A DNA stretch of 64,000 bases from Octopus vulgaris. Taxonomy: Eukaryota. Each line of letters begins with the position of its first letter. Positions within the stretch are counted from its first letter, which is position 1. The notes under the pieces are model-generated. The model searched no databases, was not told the origin of the DNA, and was given only the letters and a program-made list of their open reading frames with translations. The position numbers were made by a program, and so were the translations under genes. This document shows, piece after piece, positions 3,024-22,909 of the stretch. Location: NCBI GenBank assembly GCA_951406725.2, contig OX597842.1, positions 31,930,001 to 31,994,000 of the forward strand. The letters are read 5' to 3'.

Positions 3024-6000
3024 CCTGAATAGGAACTCAGCTCTACAGGAAAGCTTCAGTCTTCGGGAAGATGGACAAATCTGGAGATTTGTCAAGACTG
3101 ATGAAACGTGGAAGAGAGATACCAGCTGGTCTGAGTGCTCTCTACCCACAATAACTAAAAAGACTACAGCAACTCAGGGAAACTAAGCCAGGACAACCTG
3201 TCATCCTCTACACACCATCATAAACTGCGAGCAGGGTACAAATTGTTGTCCTTAAATGCTCGCAGTTTATGCAACAAAATACATTTGTTCAACGCCTACG
3301 TCAGAAGTATTGACCCTGACTTCATCACTGTCACGGAAACATGGGCGCATTCCTTACTCTGTGATGGGGTTTTCAACATCACGGGGTACAACCTCTTCCG
3401 TAAGGACCGCACTAACCGCCGTGGTGGTGGTGTGATGATCTACGTTCGTTCAAATTTTTTGGTAATTCCTTGTGCCGATTTGAACGAATCACAAGAAGAA
3501 GTTTTTTTCTGTGACGTACGTATGACCATGTCAACACTCCTGCTTGGCGTTGTTTATCGTCCCCCAAATTACCATCAGGACACACAGCTTTGCAACATCC
3601 TCCGAGCTGCTGCCAGGAAAACAGCCACTTATGTGTTTATTGCAGGCGATTTCAATCATCCTGAGATCAATTGGGAAACCTTCCATTGGCCACAGAGTGC
3701 AAACGATTTTGTTGAGCTTGTGCTGGACTCAAACTGGTCACAAGTAGTCACCTCTCCAACAAGAGGCGACAACACCTTGGACCTGCTCTTCACCACAACT
3801 CCTGAAGCGGTTATCAATTGCACTACGGAGGAACCTCTAGGTGACTCTGATCATGCTATGATCATCGCCAATCTGGCTCTTGCGGGCAACAAACACCTGA
3901 ACCATCTCCAATCTGCTTCCTTTGATTGGAAGAGAGCAGATTGGAACCTGTACCACACTGAACTACAGCACCCAAACTGGCGTGAATTTTACAACTCTGG
4001 AGATGTGAATACTATACTCCAGAGTATCCTGGACTCAATATGGGCAGCATGTGCAGCATCAGTGCCACATAAACAAAAAAAGAACTGCCCCAAAAGGGCA
4101 ATTTGGGAAACTTCAGCGGTCCGACTTGCCAGGAAGGAACGTCGGACTGCTGAACAGGAATACAAGTTGCATAAATCAGACACCAACAGGAAGAAGCGGA
4201 ATAAATCCTCCAACCATCTCAAGCAAGTGACAAAAAAAGCAGCGCTTGAATTTGAACAGTGCATAGCAGCCAATCCTGACAGCAAGGTTTTCTGGAAATA
4301 TGTGCATTCAAAGCAGAGACCTCACTCTCCAGTGGGCCCTCTTCGCAACCCTCACACAAACCAGATCACTGACGACCCCAAGGAATGCGCAGAACTCATT
4401 GCCGAGTGCTATGCAAACATATTCACTGTTGAAAGTCAAAATGTACCATCTTCACCATCACTAACAGCAAACTCCATAACAACTATGGAATTTACACCTG
4501 CAATGCTGCGACGTCACCTTCAAAATAAGCGCAACTATGCCTCCCCTGGTCTCGATGGAGTTACATACCTGCTTCTCAAACGAGGCAGGCACTTCCTTTT
4601 ACACCAGCTTTCTATTTTCTTCCAGTACTGTCTCAACAATGGTGCTACTCCGGAGCAGTGGAAAACTGCCAGTGTCATTCCTCTGTTCAAAAAGGGTGAC
4701 CGCACATCACCTGTCAACTATCGCCCAGTCAGTCTCACTAGCTGTATTGCAAAACTGATGGAATCGTGTGTCAGAGAAACACTCTGGAACTTCTGGAGCT
4801 CTCACAGTCTCATCCGACCCTCACAATATGGATTTGTCCCTAACTCCAGCTGCAGTGACCAGCTTGTCGAGTTCCTTGAGGACATTACTCAGATCACTGA
4901 CAGTGGCTCATGGGTGGATGTTGTCTACCTTGACTTTGCTAAGGCTTTCAACTCTGTGCCACACAAAAGGCTTATGGTGAAACTCTCTGCAATGGGTGTG
5001 GGGGATGACCTTTTTAACTGGTTGAAATCCTTCATCCTCAGCCGAAAGGAGGTAGTCACAGTTCTAGGACAGCACTCTACACCATATGAGATGTCATCGG
5101 GTGTACCACAGGGATCTGTCCTTGGTCCCCTCCTGTTTGTGGCATACTTTAATGACATAGATGCCAATTTAAAGAATGCCACAGTATTGAAATATGCAGA
5201 CGACATCAAGCTGTACCTTGAAATCAAGAGGACTGATCCTGATGTCTACAACTCTTTCCTGCAATCAGACCTGGACACAATGCAGCAATGGATCACAGAC
5301 TGGCAACTGAAACTGGCTGTGGACAAGTGTACCACCATGCATTTTGGGATAAAAAACCCTGCGTCCACATACTCCCTCCACAACACTGATATCAAGAAAT
5401 CCTCTTGCGAGCGTGACCTAGGCATCACTGTCAGCAGTGATTTGCGTTGGACAAAGCACATCTCTAAAATTGTCAGGAGGGCCGAGGGTGTCTTGGCATC
5501 ACTCAGCAAGACTTTTGTTAGCCGCTCTCCAGCCATCTATTTAAAACTGTATACAGCTATGGTACGACCACACTTGGAATTCGCATCATCAGTTTGGAAT
5601 CCCTATCTTGCTCAGAACATTGACCTCCTGGAATCTGTCCAGAGACGTGCAACCAAACGCATACCCTCCATCAGACACCTACCATATTCTGAGCGCCTTG
5701 TTTCCCTGGGCATGGATTCACTGAAGCTCCGGCGTCTGGCGACGGACTTGGTAAACACCCGCAAGGTTATCAACCACCTCACCAACAACAACACTGAACA
5801 CCTTTTTGATCTCCATGTGTCTAACACACGTGGACATATTTACAAAGTCAGAAAACAGCACAGCTCCCATGACTTTCGGAAACATTTTTTCATGCTCAGA
5901 GTTGCTGAAGCATGGAACAAACTGCCTGCGTCAGTTGTTGACTGCCATGACACTGCATCCTTTAAGGCCCTCATGCTTTCCGAAATCCACCGAAACTACA

Positions 6001-6070
6001 CCTGATTATATATACACTTTAGATGAGTTGTAGTGCACCTGAGCACTGTACACAATTATTATTATTATAT
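3024..6070 (+). mobile_element. CR1/L2-group LINE, 5'-truncated, with intact ORF2
   Basis: APE and RT ORF, short 3' UTR with a stem-loop, and an (ATT)n tail. Confidence 0.9.
3243..6005 (+). CDS. LINE ORF2: AP endonuclease plus reverse transcriptase
   Basis: NARS, VTETW, GDFN, LDL and SDH endonuclease motifs; YRPVSL, DFAKAF, GVPQGSVLGP and YADD RT motifs; no stops in 920 codons. Confidence 0.95.
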   Translation: MLSLNARSLCNKIHLFNAYVRSIDPDFITVTETWAHSLLCDGVFNITGYNLFRKDRTNRRGGGVMIYVRSNFLVIPCADLNESQEEVFFCDVRMTMSTLLLGVVYRPPNYHQDTQLCNILRAAARKTATYVFIAGDFNHPEINWETFHWPQSANDFVELVLDSNWSQVVTSPTRGDNTLDLLFTTTPEAVINCTTEEPLGDSDHAMIIANLALAGNKHLNHLQSASFDWKRADWNLYHTELQHPNWREFYNSGDVNTILQSILDSIWAACAASVPHKQKKNCPKRAIWETSAVRLARKERRTAEQEYKLHKSDTNRKKRNKSSNHLKQVTKKAALEFEQCIAANPDSKVFWKYVHSKQRPHSPVGPLRNPHTNQITDDPKECAELIAECYANIFTVESQNVPSSPSLTANSITTMEFTPAMLRRHLQNKRNYASPGLDGVTYLLLKRGRHFLLHQLSIFFQYCLNNGATPEQWKTASVIPLFKKGDRTSPVNYRPVSLTSCIAKLMESCVRETLWNFWSSHSLIRPSQYGFVPNSSCSDQLVEFLEDITQITDSGSWVDVVYLDFAKAFNSVPHKRLMVKLSAMGVGDDLFNWLKSFILSRKEVVTVLGQHSTPYEMSSGVPQGSVLGPLLFVAYFNDIDANLKNATVLKYADDIKLYLEIKRTDPDVYNSFLQSDLDTMQQWITDWQLKLAVDKCTTMHFGIKNPASTYSLHNTDIKKSSCERDLGITVSSDLRWTKHISKIVRRAEGVLASLSKTFVSRSPAIYLKLYTAMVRPHLEFASSVWNPYLAQNIDLLESVQRRATKRIPSIRHLPYSERLVSLGMDSLKLRRLATDLVNTRKVINHLTNNNTEHLFDLHVSNTRGHIYKVRKQHSSHDFRKHFFMLRVAEAWNKLPASVVDCHDTASFKALMLSEIHRNYT

Positions 6071-15321: not shown

Positions 15322-15624
15322 ATATATAAAATAAGGAAATGAAGAAAATGCTGACAAAATAATTTAAGTAATTTAATTAGGTGAGAGTTCTTTTTACCGG
15401 TTGCGCATTTGTTATGCTTATCAAAAGATATTTTTTTAAGAGAGATAGAGTTCCTTTCTGATAGATAAGAGGAAAAAAAATCTATCAGAAGGGAACTCTA
15501 TCTCTCTTAAAAAAATATCTTTTGATAAGCATAACAAATGCGCAACCGGTAAAAAGAACTCTCACCTAATTAAATTACTTAAATTATTTTGTCAGCATTT
15601 TCTTCATTTCCTTATTTTATATAT
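15322..15624. repeat. Near-perfect palindrome, ~144-bp arms with ~14-nt loop
   Basis: The arms are reverse complements with one visible mismatch (cctttctg vs cagaaggg). Confidence 0.95.
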
Positions 15625-15926: not shown

Positions 15927-16435
15927 TACATACATACACACACACACATATACTGTCACAAATGGAAGATGAGGGCACCCAATTTCTTGCCAAAGAACCT
16001 GTACAAAAGATTTGTTATGCTTATAGTGATCAAATCAACATTGTCTGGACAGGTGTTCCACGCGTCAGGTGTCAAAGTGATCCCAGAGCAAATTGAGATG
16101 AAGGGTTTTGTTCAAGAACACAATGTACCGCCCAGTCCAGGAATTGAACCGACAATCTTTATTGTGAGTGCATCACCCTAACCACTAGGTCATGTGCCCG
16201 CAAATACACATATATAAACACACACATACATTGCTCCAACCACGACCATCACCGCAGTCAGGTGTACATTTTTAAGTCAAAGTAGAAGAGACTCGTCCAA
16301 AGTGCCACAAGGTGGAATTGAACTTGGAACCAGAGAGTTGCAAAGCAAACTTAATATCCACATACAAACATCTATAAATACACACACACATTTACACACA
16401 CATACACACAGTTCTGACTATGGCCATCACTGCAG

Positions 16436-17053
16436 ATCAGTCCAGTCCAGTCCAGTCCTGTGCTGTCCAGTCCAGTCCTGTCCAGTCCAGTCCTGTCTAG
16501 TCCAGTCCAGTCCAGTCTAGTCCAGTCCTGTGCTGTCCAGTCCAGTCCAGTCCAGTCCAGTCCTGTCCAGTCCAGTCCAGTCCAGTCCAGTCCTGTCCTG
16601 TCCAGTCCAGTCCAGTCCTGTCCAGTCCAGTCCTGTGCTGTCCAGTCCAGTCCTGTCCTGTCCAGTCCAGTCCTGTCCAGTCCAGTCCTGTCTAGTCCAG
16701 TCCTGTCCAGTCTAGTCCAGTCCTGTGCTGTCCAGTCCAGTCCTGTGCTGTCCAGTCCAGTCCTCTCCAGTCCAGTCCTGTCCAGTCTAGTCCAGTCCTG
16801 TGCTGTCCAGTCCAGTCCTGTCCTGTCCAGTCCAGTCCTGTCCAGTCCAGTCCTGTCTAGTCCAGTCCTGTCCAGTCTAGTCCAGTCCTGTCCAGTCCTG
16901 TCCAGTCCAGTCCAGTCCAGTCCTGTCTAGTCCAGTCCTGTCCAGTCTAGTCCAGTCCTGTCCAGTCCTGTCCAGTCCTGTCCAGTCCTGTCCAGTCCTG
17001 TCCTGTCCAGTCCAGTCCAGTCCTGTCCTGTCCAGTCCTGTCTAGTCCAGTCC
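16436..17053. repeat. Pentanucleotide satellite (TCCAG/TCCTG/TCTAG)n
   Basis: About 120 pentamers, directly visible. Confidence 0.97.
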
Positions 17054-17284
17054 ATTCTAATTTCAGCTCCAACAGTCGAACTATTTTTCAGAGGGGTGCT
17101 GCTGCAGCTGGGGCTTGTTTCAACTCACAGCCAGAATCTCTAAGGAACACAGGACAAAGCAGTGAGCCATGATGGTGGTAGGAGGGAGTGAAGGGGAGGG
17201 GGGAGAGAAAGAGGGAGCGATGGCCGGTCCTGATCTGTGGTGGTTGTTCTGTTTTGCATGTTCTTGTTTCCCTTTGCTGGTTCT

Positions 17285-17307
17285 TCAGAGAGAGACATCA
17301 GCCAGAA
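17285..17307 (-). CDS. LIN54: Candidate terminal LIN54 exon, coding part (VLADVSL*), followed by 3' UTR
   Basis: (ct)n-ttccag acceptor where the satellite meets unique sequence; joined to the phase-1 donor at 22734 it reads VLADVSL then TGA. Confidence 0.6.
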
Positions 17308-17310
17308 CTG

Positions 17311-17413
17311 GAAGAGAGAGAGGGAGAGAGAGTGAGAGAGAGAGAGAGAGAGAGTAGTAATTGGAGAGAGAGAGAGAGAGAGTAGTAATTGGAGAGAGAG
17401 AGAGAGTAGTAAT

Positions 17414-17465
<52 letters not shown>

Positions 17466-17468
17466 TAA

Positions 17469-17499
<31 letters not shown>

Positions 17500-18757
17500 A
17501 GTAATTGGAGAGAGAGAGAGAGAGAGTAGTAATTGGAGAGAGAGAGAGAGAGAGAGAGAGTAGTAATTGGAGAGAGAGAGAGAGAGAGAGAGTAGTAATT
17601 GGAGAGAGAGAGAGAGAGAGAGAGAGTAGTAATTGGAGAGAGAGAGAGAGTAGTAATTGGAGAGAGAGAGGGAGAGAGAGTAGTAATTGGAGAGAGAGAG
17701 AGAGAGAGTAGTAATTGGAGAGAGAGAGAGAGAGTAGTAATTGGAGAGAGAGAGGGAGAGAGAGTAGTAATTGGAGAGAGAGAGAGAGAATAGTAATTGG
17801 AGAGAGAGAGAGAGTAGTAATTGGAGAGAGAGAGAGAGAGAGAGTAGTAATTGGAGAGAGAGAGAGAGAGAGAGAGTAGTAATTTGAGAGAGAGAGGGAG
17901 AGAGAGTAGTAATTGGAGAGAGAGAGAGAGAGTAGTAATTGGAGAGAGAGAGAGAGAGAGTAGTAATTGGAGAGAGAGAGGGAGAGAGAGTAGTAATTGG
18001 AGAGAGAGAGAGAGAGTAGTAATTGGAGAGAGAGAGAGAGAGTAGTAATTGGAGAGAGAGAGAGAGAGTAGTAATTTGGAGAGAGAGAGAGAGAGAGTAG
18101 TAATTGGAGAGAGAGAGAGAGAGTAGTAATTGGAGAGAGAGAGAGAGTAGTAATTGGAGAGAGAGAGAGAGAGTAGTAATTGGAGAGAGAGAGAGTAGTA
18201 ATTGGAGAGAGAGAGAGAGAGTAGTAATTGGAGAGAGAGAGGGAGAGAGAGTAGTAATTGGAGAGAGAGAGAGAGTAGTAATTGGAGAGAGAGAGAGAGA
18301 GTAGTAATTGGAGAGAGAGAGGGAGAGAGAGTAGTAATTGGAGAGAGAGAGAGAGAGAATTGGAGAGAGAGAGAGAGAGTAGTAATTGGAGAGAGAGAGA
18401 GAGAGAGTAGTAATTGGAGAGAGAGAGAGTAGTAATTGGAGAGAGAGAGAGAGTAGTAATTGGAAAGAGAGAGAGAGAGAGAGAGTAGTAATTGGAGAGA
18501 GAGAGAGTAGTATTTGGAGAGAGAGAGAGAGAGAGTAGTAATTGGAGAGAGAGAGAGAGAGAGTAGTAATTGGAGAGAGAGAGAGAGTAGTAATTGGAGA
18601 GAGAGAGAGAGAGAGTAGTAATTGGAGAGAGAGAGAGAGAGAGTAGTAATTGGAGAGAGAGAGAGAGAGTAGTAATTGGAGAGAGAGAGAGAGAGAGAGT
18701 AGTAATTGGAGAGAGAGAGAGAGAGTAGTAATTGGAGAGAGAGAGAGAGAGTAGTAA

Positions 18758-18788
<31 letters not shown>

Positions 18789-18856
18789 AGTAATTGGAGA
18801 GAGAGAGAGAGAGAGAGTAGTAATTGGAGAGAGAGAGAGAGAGAGAGAGTAGTAAT

Positions 18857-18890
<34 letters not shown>

Positions 18891-21800
18891 TAATTGGAGA
18901 GAGAGAGAGAGAGTAGTAATTGGAGAGAGAGAGAGAGAGAGTAGTAATTGGAGAGAGAGTAGTAATTGGAGAGAGAGAGAGAGAGAGAGTAGTAATTGGA
19001 GAGAGAGAGAGGGAGTAGTAATTGGAGAGAGAGAGAGAGAGTAGTAATTGGAGAGAGAGAGAGAGAGTAGTAATTGGAGAGAGAGAGAGAGAGAGAGAGT
19101 AGTAATTGGAGAGAGAGAGAGAGAAGTAATTGGAGAGAGAGAGAGTAGTAATTGGAGAGAGAGAGAGAGAGTAGTAATTGGAGAGAGAGAGGGAGAGAGA
19201 GTAGTAATTGGAGAGAGAGAGAGAGAGAGAGTAGTAATTGGAGAGAGAGAGAGAGAGAGAGTAGTAATTGGAGAGAGAGAGAGTAGTAATTGGAGAGAGA
19301 GAGAGAGAGAGTAGTAATTGGAGAGAGAGAGAGAGAGAGAGAGTAGTATTTGGAGAGAGAGAGAGAGAGAGAGAGAGTAGTAATTGGAGAGAGAGAGAGA
19401 GAGAGAGTAGTAATTGGAGAGAGAGAGAGAGAGAGAGTAGTGATTGGAGAGAGAGAGAGAGTAGTAATTGGAGAGAGAGAGAGTAGTAATTGGAGAGAGA
19501 GAGAGAGAGAGAGTAGTAATTGGAGAGAGAGAGAGAGTAGTAATTGGAGAGAGAGAGAGTAGTAATTGGAGAGAGAGAGAGAGTAGTATTTGGAGAGAGA
19601 GAGAGAGAGAGTAGTAATTGGAGAGAGAGAGAGAGTAGTAATTGGAGAGAGAGAGAGAGAGAGTAGTAATTGGAGAGAGAGAGAGAGAGAGTAGTAATTG
19701 GAGAGAGAGAGGGAGAGAGTAGTAATTGGAGAGAGAGAGAGAGAGTAGTAATTGGAGAGAGAGAGAGAGAGAGAGAGTAGTAATTGGAGAGAGAGAGAGA
19801 GAGAGAGTAGTAATTGGAGAGAGAGAGAGAGAGTAGTAATTGGAGAGAGAGAGAGAGTAGTAATTAGAGAGAGAGAGAGAGAGTAGTAATTGGAGAGAGA
19901 GTGAGAGAGAGAGTAGTAATTGGAGAGAGAGAGAGAGAGTAGTAATTGGAGAGAGAGAGAGAGAGAGAGTAGTAATTGGAGAGAGAGAGAGAGAGTAGTA
20001 TTTGGAGAGAGAGAGAGAGAGAGTAGTAATTGGAGAGAGAGAGAGAGAGAGAGTAGTAATTGGAGAGAGAGAGAGAGAGAGTAGTGATTGGAGAGAGAGA
20101 GAGAGTAGTAATTGGAGAGAGAGAGAGAGTAGTAATTGGAGAGAGAGAGAGTAGTAATTGGAGAGAGAGAGAGTAGTAATTGGAGAGAGAGAGAGTAGTA
20201 TTTGAGAGAGAGAGAGAGAGAGTAGTAATTGGAGAGAGAGAGAGAGTAGTAATTGGAGAGAGAGAGAGAGAGAGTAGTAATTGGAGAGAGAGAGAGAGAG
20301 AGTAGTAATTGGAGAGAGAGAGGGAGAGAGAGTAGTAATTGGAGAGAGAGAGAGAGAGTAGTAATTAGAGAGAGAGAGAGAGAGAGAGAGTAGTAATTGG
20401 AGAGAGAGAGAGAGAGAGTAGTAATTGGAGAGAGAGAGAGAGAGAGTAGTGATTGGAGAGAGAGAGAGAGTAGTAATTGGAGAGAGAGAGAGTAGTAATT
20501 GGAGAGAGAGAGGGAGAGAGAGTAGTAATTGGAGAGAGAGAGAGAGTAGTATTTGGAGAGAGAGAGAGAGAGAGTAGTAATTGGAGAGAGAGAGAGAGAG
20601 AGAGTAGTAATTGGAGAGAGAGAGAGAGAGAGAGAGTAATAATTGGAGAGAGAGAGTAGTAATTGGAGAGAGAGAGGAGAGTAGTAATTGGAGAGAGAGA
20701 GAGAGAGAGAGTAGTAATTGGAGAGAGAGAGAGAGAGAGAGTAGTAATTGGAGAGAGAGAGAGAGAGAGTAGTAATTGGAGAGAGAGAGAGAGAGTAGTA
20801 ATTGGAGAGAGAGAGAGAGTAGTAATTAGAGAGAGAGAGGGAGAGAGTAGTAATTGGAGAGAGAGAGGGAGAGAGAGTAGTAATTGGAGAGAGAGAGAGA
20901 GAGAGTAGTAATTGGAGAGAGAGAGAGAGAGTAGTGATTGGAGAGAGAGAGAGAGAGAGAGTAGTAATTGGAGAGAGAGAGAGAGAGAGTAGTAATTGGA
21001 GAGAGAGAGAGAGTAGTAATTGGAGAGAGAGAGAGAGAGTAGTAATTGGAGAGAGAGAGAGTAGTAATTGGAGAGAGAGAGAGAGAGAGTAGTAATTGGA
21101 GAGAGAGAGAGAGAGTAGTAATTGGAGAGAGAGAGAGAGTAGTAATTGGAGAGAGAGAGAGTAGTAATTGGAGAGAGAGAGAGAGAGAGAGTAGTAATTG
21201 GAGAGAGAGAGAGAGAGTAGTAATTGGAGAGAGAGAGACAGAGTAGTGATTGGAGAGAGAGAGAGAGTAGTAATTGGAGAGAGAGAGAGAGAGTAGTAAT
21301 TGGAGAGAGAGAGAAAGTAGTGATTGGAGAGAGAGAGAGAGTAGTAATTGGAGAGAGAGAGAGAGAGTAGTAATTGGAGAGAGAGAGAAAGTAGTGATTG
21401 GAGAGAGAGAGTAGTAATTGGAGAGAGAGAGAGAGAGTAGTAATTGGAGAGAGAGAGAGAGAGAGTAGTGATTGGAGAGAGAGTAGTAATTGGAGAGAGA
21501 GAGTAGTAATTGGAGAGAGAGAGAGTAGTCTTTGGAGAGAGAGAGAGAGTAGTATTTGGAGAGAGAGAGAGAGTAGTAATTGGAGAGAGAGAGAGAGTAG
21601 TGATTGGAGAGAGAGAGAGAGTAGTGATTGGAGAGAGAGAGAGAGAGTAGTAATTGGAGAGAGAGAGAGAGTAGTAATTGGAGAGAGAGAGTAGTAATTG
21701 GACAGAGAGAGAGAGAGAGAGTAGTAATTGGAGAGAGAGAGAGAGTAGTATTTGGAGAGAGAGAGAGAGTAGTATTTGGAGAGAGAGAGAGAGAGAGTAT

Positions 21801-22080
21801 TTGGAGAGAGAGAGAGTAGTATTTGGAGAGAGAGAGAGTAGTAATTGAAGAGAGAGAGAGTAGTAATTGGAGAGAGAGTAGTAATTGGAGAGAGAGAGAG
21901 TAGTATTTGGAGAGAGAGAGAGAGTAGTAATTGGATAGAGAGAGAGAGAGAGAAATATATATATATATGTTAGAGAGAGAGAGAAAAAGAGAGAGAAATA
22001 TATATATATATGTTAGAGAGAGAGAGAGAGAGAGAGAGTAGTAATTGGAGAGAGAGAGAGAGAGAGTAATTGGAGAGAGA
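17311..22080. repeat. (GA)n-GTAGTAATTG satellite, ~4.7 kb
   Basis: Roughly 200 units (estimate) with variable GA run length. Confidence 0.97.
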
Positions 22081-22119
22081 GAGAAAGAGAGTTATAATAA
22101 TGATAAAGAGAGATATACA

Positions 22120-22632
22120 TGTTATAGAGAGAGAGAAAGTAAAAGAGAGGGAGGCAGAGAGAGAAAGTAAGAGAGGGAGGCAGAGAGAGAGAGAGAAAGT
22201 AAGAGAGGGAGGCAGAGAGAGAGAAAGTAAGAGAGGGTGGCAGAGAGAGAGAGAAAGTAAGAGAGGGAGGCAGAGAGAGAGAAAGTAAGAGAGGGAGGCA
22301 GAGAGAGAGAAAGTAAGAGAAGGAGGCAGAGAGAGAGAGAAATAAGAGAGGGAGGCAGAGAGAGAAAGAAAGTAAGAGAGGGAGGCAGAGAGAGAGAAAT
22401 AAGAGAGGGAGGCAGAGAGAGAGAGAAAGTAAGAGAGGAAGGCAGAGAGAGGGAGAAATAAGAGAGGGAGAGAGAGAGAAAAGTAAGAGGAGGCAGAGAG
22501 AGAGAGAAATAAGAGAGGGAGGCAGAGAGAGAGAGAAATAAGAGAGGGAGGCAGAGAGAGAAAGTAAGAGAGGGAGGCAGAGAGAGAGACAGAGAGTAAG
22601 AGAGACAGAGAAAAGACAAATAGAGAGAAGGG

Positions 22633-22660
<28 letters not shown>
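22120..22660. repeat. GA-rich ~28-30 bp minisatellite
   Basis: Unit AA(G/A)TAAGAGAGGGAGGCAGAGAGAGAG. Confidence 0.9.
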
Positions 22661-22668
<8 letters not shown>

Positions 22669-22710
22669 TAAAATTAACAGTGAAATGACATCCACTTTGT
22701 TTCATGACCA

Positions 22711-22909
22711 TCACCACTGATGGATTTCCTCACCTTTTGTTTTATGCGCCGAATCAATGATTCTCATTAGACATCGACCGAATTCCTCAATCACCATCCG
22801 TTCCTGGACGACGGTGGGCAGCTTCAGCTTCTCAGACTCTTCAGCTCTGGCCATCAGGCAGACGCACGTCTCCTCCACCACATCACTTGTTACGAACGTG
22901 TAAGGCAAC
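22711..22909 (-). CDS. LIN54: LIN54 C-terminal helical exon (LPYTFVT...EEFGRCLMRII); ends at TGA 22711-22713 or splices out after 22734
   Basis: cctgttccag acceptor; EEFGRCL motif; internal strong donor AAG|GTGAGG at 22734/22733. Confidence 0.93.

Follow-up and report, generated by a model that had tools for sequence, protein, structure and literature searches.

A tandem array of GGACU-type m6A motifs in the likely 3′ UTR of octopus LIN54 is predicted to pair with itself

The window analyzed here, a stretch of 64,000 nucleotides of Octopus vulgaris DNA, carries the end of a LIN54 gene on its minus strand. At 22909-22734, an exon shares 95% identity with LIN54 of Octopus bimaculoides, confirming the gene assignment made in a preliminary description of this DNA, and other mollusc LIN54 proteins match at 68-74% similarity. 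Protein searches found no full-length Octopus LIN54 besides the O. bimaculoides model P0001. This penultimate coding exon (22734..22909) is followed by a GT donor at 22733, by the last intron (17308..22733; 5426 nt, mostly CT-rich satellite) and, after the acceptor AG at 17309-17308, by the coding part of the last exon (17285..17307), which encodes the KTKVLADVSL end of the protein and terminates at the TGA at 17287-17285. To follow the transcript, public assembled contigs of four runs, each from a different study, were aligned on the unique flank 17056-17312. The splice from 22734 to 17307 was present in contigs of 4/4 runs, the loose end at 17309 being the upstream exon. These data demonstrate that the four runs contain RNA, although no run carrying this flank is registered as RNA, that the 5426-nt intron is removed, and that the exon starting at 17307 and its stop at 17285 are used, as had been proposed.

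The intron itself is peculiar. Its sense strand is 85% pyrimidine, and a CAATTACTAC unit is present in it 141 times; only six AG dinucleotides occur, none of them over the 4.2 kb before the acceptor. AG is thus missing over a very long zone that offers many potential branch points, and yet the intron is spliced in 4/4 runs. In the O. bimaculoides model P0001 the last donor is read through (window 22711-22734), and mollusc LIN54 proteins diverge directly past the same KTK-like position (5/17 fetched), which fits a shared intron there.

Downstream of the stop codon, a unique proximal 3′ UTR of 231 nt (17054..17284, minus strand) contains 7 DRACH motifs and is covered by contigs in 4/4 runs. It is followed by a pentamer satellite of GGACT, GGACA and variant units (16439..17053, minus strand; 615 bases), which the tandem-repeat table and a unit count resolve into 123 phased pentamers, from 17053 to 16439, without indels. 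The computed distance of 231 nt from the TGA agrees with the onset at about 230 nt given previously. The units comprise 75 GGACT, 31 GGACA, 5 AGACT, 5 AGACA, 6 GCACA and 1 GGAGA, so that the transcribed strand bears 116 DRACH motifs, 75 of them GGACU, and the plus strand none. The dense, tandem, GGACU-type satellite described on the LIN54 strand is therefore real. GGACU, GGACA and AGACU are indeed DRACH; GCACA, however, is not the only unit outside the consensus, as GGAGA is another, and AGACA, a DRACH variant as frequent as AGACT, had been overlooked. Mononucleotide shuffles yielded 12 ± 3 DRACH (maximum 21, n = 1000), and across the window the median count is 10-11 per 618 nt, against 116 in the array. 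This excess is a signal of repetition rather than of selection, since a high score is expected whenever a DRACH unit is repeated in tandem. Open reading frames in the array are repeat translations; an ATG just upstream opens a short frame that ends at 16927, with no support for translation. The window as a whole carries 139 TRF rows.

How much of the array is present in the mRNA? Contigs extend 36-47 letters beyond 17056 in 3/4 runs. In run X14, a single contig comprises the splice junction and 47 letters past 17056, indicating that spliced mRNA enters the array, as the preliminary description had supposed, at least as to its beginning. Judged by its length, this contig ends exactly where a 31-mer graph break is predicted in the assembly's array. 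No contig bridged the whole array in the four runs. Beyond it, near-identical contigs of two of the four runs cover a unique stretch (15955..16141) that is likely distal 3′ UTR. In these two runs its depth is 68 and 55.8, and that of the last exon 54.5 and 46.6. The segment 16243-16465 is without contig cover in 4/4 runs, but repeats are skipped in the alignment and the gap is thus uninformative; likewise, the missing cover of the unique downstream flank in runs X16 and X19 proves nothing. Runs of organisms B and C also yielded no usable contigs over this flank. The first AATAAA past the array (16158..16163, minus strand) lies within a SINE-like stretch; as contigs exist beyond it, the main poly(A) signal may be another one. 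Taken together, these results suggest that the whole array is likely included in LIN54 mRNA, the contigs being strandless and none of them bridging it. It is very unlikely that most LIN54 mRNAs stop inside or just past the array, or are heterogeneous, with only part of the array in the mature form and the downstream contigs stemming from another transcript or nascent RNA: the unbridged array, the strandless contigs and the read-through of the 22734 donor in P0001 would fit such partial inclusion, whereas the splice in 4/4 runs, the downstream depth at least matching that of the last exon, and the absence of AATAAA or ATTAAA both between 17307 and 16163 and in the last intron, where it could end a read-through form, speak against it. 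Allelic differences were also visible in this region, with a 5-nt deletion at 16016 in run X8 and, next to the array (17056-17093), a one-letter bubble in X4 and X8.

We then asked whether the array belongs to a family. In the 2.8 Gb genome, a six-unit pattern gave 21 matches at 3 places, and a GGACT-led pattern of four units matched 72 times, 37 of these in the array and 35 at 25 other loci. All of the 21 loci fetched among these 25 contain 4-12 units, and their flanks share merely bits of common repeats. The LIN54 array, on the sense strand and near a stop codon, is hence the sole long GGACT-led array found, and these counts lend no support to (GGACT)n arrays as a recurrent feature of UTRs across the genome. 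A single long array together with frequent short seeds points to the singleton expansion of a recurrent seed, not to a UTR cassette family. At least one long DRACH array of another unit does exist: among the first 100 of 249 matches listed, a (GGACA)150 array preceded by four AGACA units, amounting to 154 DRACH in a row, was found at about 11.9877-11.9885 Mb of G000:C1, downstream of SINE-/LINE-like sequence whose tail carries a similar AAGAC repeat, and with repeat-like ORFs only in the 10 kb fetched around it. (AGAC)9, in which DRACH recurs at 4-nt intervals, matches the genome 29,709 times, overlaps included; the search for (AGACA)7 returned none, showing that not every DRACH pentamer forms common arrays. 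Of 204 pentamer classes, 18 make DRACH arrays.

The order of the units bears on the origin of the array. GCACA follows GGACT-GGACT-GGACA in 6/6 cases and AGACW follows two GGACT in 10/10, fixed contexts that are expected to arise from block duplication. The longest repeated block spans 20 units, against a mean of 9.9 and a maximum of 21 in 200 shuffles, which makes this a weak test. As for selection to maintain DRACH, two of the four distinct changes from GGACT keep the motif, compared to 5 of the 15 possible ones; with four classes the comparison has almost no power.

Nearest-neighbour predictions indicate that the array RNA would fold strongly, at -280.3 kcal/mol against -123.5 ± 8.1 in 20 dinucleotide shuffles, the antisense strand folding at -127.8 kcal/mol. 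The predicted architecture alternates 3-bp stems with 2x2 GA/GA loops: GGAC would pair with GGAC (G-C, G.A, A.G, C-G), the fifth bases of the units would form U-A pairs or U.U mismatches, and the m6A target A would thereby sit within the 2x2 G.A loop. Among 200 sampled structures, the A lies in a closed 2x2 loop for 67% of RGAC units. The predicted probability that a whole motif is unpaired is 0.032 over the 116 array sites (about four open at once), against 0.15 over 18 flanking DRACH. For the array, the value obtained at 18 °C was identical to that at 37 °C and is given no weight here. The fold holds under local span (-239 at 50 nt) and has no dominant register, the minimum-free-energy structure having a frequency of 0.0015 and the centroid being mostly open. 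It depends on the unit: GGACU x123 folds at -184 kcal/mol, GGAAU x123 at 0.0, and (GAACU)n, a DRACH control sequence, at 0.0 as well, while the Turner model assigns -2.6 kcal/mol to the (GGAC)2 loop. The m6A parameters of ViennaRNA left the fold unchanged, but they do not cover the GGAC loop. The idea of a hyper-methylatable cassette thus sits poorly with the model, in which the array is strongly self-paired with about 3% of its motifs open. Three reports bear on this structure. In PMC5900564, the (5′-GGAC-3′)2 loop forms Watson-Crick-like imino G.A pairs by NMR. PMC8917230 gives 0.33 ± 0.53 kcal/mol for a G-m6A tandem loop of the sheared type, whose geometry differs from that of the GGAC loop. 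In the reporter assay of PMC10870504, methylation dropped when a DRACH was shifted from a loop to a stem, the stems used being perfect ones and not G.A-mismatch helices.

The native unit order folded better than 100/100 plain unit shuffles at span 150, and its fold was reached by 1 of 15 global unit shuffles. However, 13/80 shuffles keeping unit pairs and 60/80 keeping triplets folded at least equally well, and selection for the fold was therefore rejected. The array overlapped none of the 34 sub-threshold Rfam hits. At the DNA level, the G-rich strand folds at -28.9 and its complement at -13.8 over 300 nt, and the better folding of the G-rich strand may provide a mutational route to expansion.

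The writer and reader components of the m6A proposal are represented in the genome, with MT-A70 matches at three loci, one of them carrying DPPW (METTL3-like), and YTH matches at three loci. The METTL3-like locus contains a 594-aa open frame that spans the whole MT-A70 domain, and this part of the gene looks intronless. The position is favourable too, as had been suggested, a distance of 256 nt separating the last exon junction from the first target A of the array, which lies outside the junction-exclusion zone. Indeed, oyster m6A peaks around stop codons (PMC10787124), junction exclusion of m6A reaches up to about 200 nt in planarians (PMC13594981), and it also operates in zebrafish (10.64898/2026.07.03.736379). 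Being near the stop and more than 200 nt past the junction, the array DRACH resemble the expected substrates of such default last-exon methylation (PMC13594981; 10.64898/2026.07.03.736379). Ordinary last exons differ in that their sites are dispersed (7 per 231 nt in the proximal UTR here), whereas the array has one every 5 nt, and the exclusion model is shown in planarian and zebrafish rather than in a cephalopod. Our literature search found no octopus m6A map, and the accessible part of PMC13629450 mentions no octopus or cephalopod. Position and machinery nevertheless appear permissive for methylation of the array.

We consider it somewhat probable that the array is a neutral pentamer-satellite expansion in the LIN54 3′ UTR, which would form sliding G.A-mismatch hairpins, receive a low default m6A level per site and exert at most a by-product effect. 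A short GGACT seed would have expanded by slippage, and the resulting RNA would fold into sliding hairpins that hide most of the 116 motifs. Because the sites lie more than 250 nt from the last junction, METTL3 would by default methylate those that are transiently open or in loops; occupancy per site would be low, yet the sum over 116 sites could add up to an m6A peak. If LIN54 mRNA were affected at all, this would be a by-product, not the cause of the array's existence. The array shares with ordinary micro- and minisatellites its phased short units, block-propagated variants and short seeds elsewhere; it differs from them by belonging to a motif class that is rare in the genome and by matching, in sense orientation, the consensus preferred for m6A. 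Against neutrality, the sole long GGACU array is in sense and near a stop codon, for which we roughly estimate, post hoc and with an assumed UTR share, a chance of about 1% for a random array; this argument from coincidence is tempered by the existence of many rare-motif arrays. Also against this reading, the native unit order outdid all plain unit shuffles in the model, though one global shuffle equalled it. Against hiding by the fold, no register dominates the prediction, the reporter assay used perfect stems, and methylation could be co-transcriptional, ahead of folding.

Alternatively, the array might be heavily methylated and serve, through selection or co-option, as a multivalent YTH platform tuning LIN54 mRNA decay or localization. 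The 116 DRACH, 75 of them GGACU and all in sense, the 256-nt junction distance, the oyster stop-codon peaks (PMC10787124), the planarian exclusion zone of up to about 200 nt (PMC13594981), and the presence of a DPPW-bearing METTL3-like gene and of three YTH loci are all consistent with this possibility. A precedent is human HSat3, a (GGAAU)n lncRNA that is about 10% methylated and sequesters YTHDC1, the writers binding GGACU repeats better (PMC10505914). Like HSat3, the octopus array would be a pentamer satellite RNA with a GGA-core unit and many tandem potential m6A sites, and it could work in the same manner by analogy. HSat3, however, is a pericentromeric lncRNA induced by stress, whose motif departs from the consensus and whose m6A has been measured; the octopus array offers perfect consensus over 0.6 kb within the 3′ UTR of one mRNA and is predicted to be self-paired. 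We regard the YTH platform as unlikely, given the predicted self-pairing (0.032 open versus 0.15 in the flanks), the absence of a selection signal in the variants, where power is minimal, and in the fold, the lack of a family of such UTR arrays in the genome and of an octopus m6A map in the literature search, and the finding in zebrafish that clearance depends more on m6A in the CDS than on m6A in the 3′ UTR (10.64898/2026.07.03.736379). In planarians, the direction of the m6A effect varies with cell type (PMC13594981).

Less likely still, the array would act independently of methylation, through its fold or as a sponge for repeat-binding proteins, by means of a long G.A-mismatch helix or GGAC-binding proteins, like other short-tandem-repeat RNAs. 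Its predicted fold is strong and strand-specific (-280.3 versus -127.8 for the antisense), and repeats of 5-6 nt are thought to be suited to concentrating RNA-binding proteins (PMC10505914), but unit composition and short-range order alone explain the fold, and none of the 34 sub-threshold Rfam hits overlaps the array. A slim chance also goes to a natural self-pairing m6A switch, in which folding and methylation would compete over the 116 sites, because the GGAC core is its own pairing partner via imino G.A pairs, resulting in cooperative, all-or-none methylation of LIN54 mRNA and repeat-length-dependent control of this DREAM/MuvB subunit. Two array units that pair can give precisely the (5′-GGAC-3′)2 tandem imino G.A loop, which is known from short model duplexes (PMC5900564), while the octopus array is a natural polymer that would place the target A in the G.A pair. 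Our literature search, with thin coverage of subscription papers, found no natural GGACU or GGAC polymer in an mRNA, nothing on octopus LIN54, and no papers on tandem GGACU with structure or on GGACU repeats with YTHDF phase separation.

Even if neutral, as we favour, the array packs the preferred m6A motif into a natural mRNA at an unusual density, and offers a natural test of sequence versus structure in m6A deposition. It could reveal the single-molecule methylation of 116 adjacent sites and whether GGAC self-pairing blocks METTL3, and synthetic GGACU-repeat substrates should fold likewise. If methylation or array length were to set LIN54 levels, the array would amount to an m6A dial, encoded by a repeat, for a core cell-cycle gene. 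The case is at present one locus in one species.

Two further elements were noticed in the window. About 800 nt beyond the array, an inverted repeat (15322-15624; 145 bp, 99% complementary, 13-nt spacer) is MITE-like and could be an ADAR substrate if the UTR reaches that far. On the plus strand, positions 3159-6005 hold an intact LINE ORF of 948 aa with endonuclease and reverse-transcriptase.
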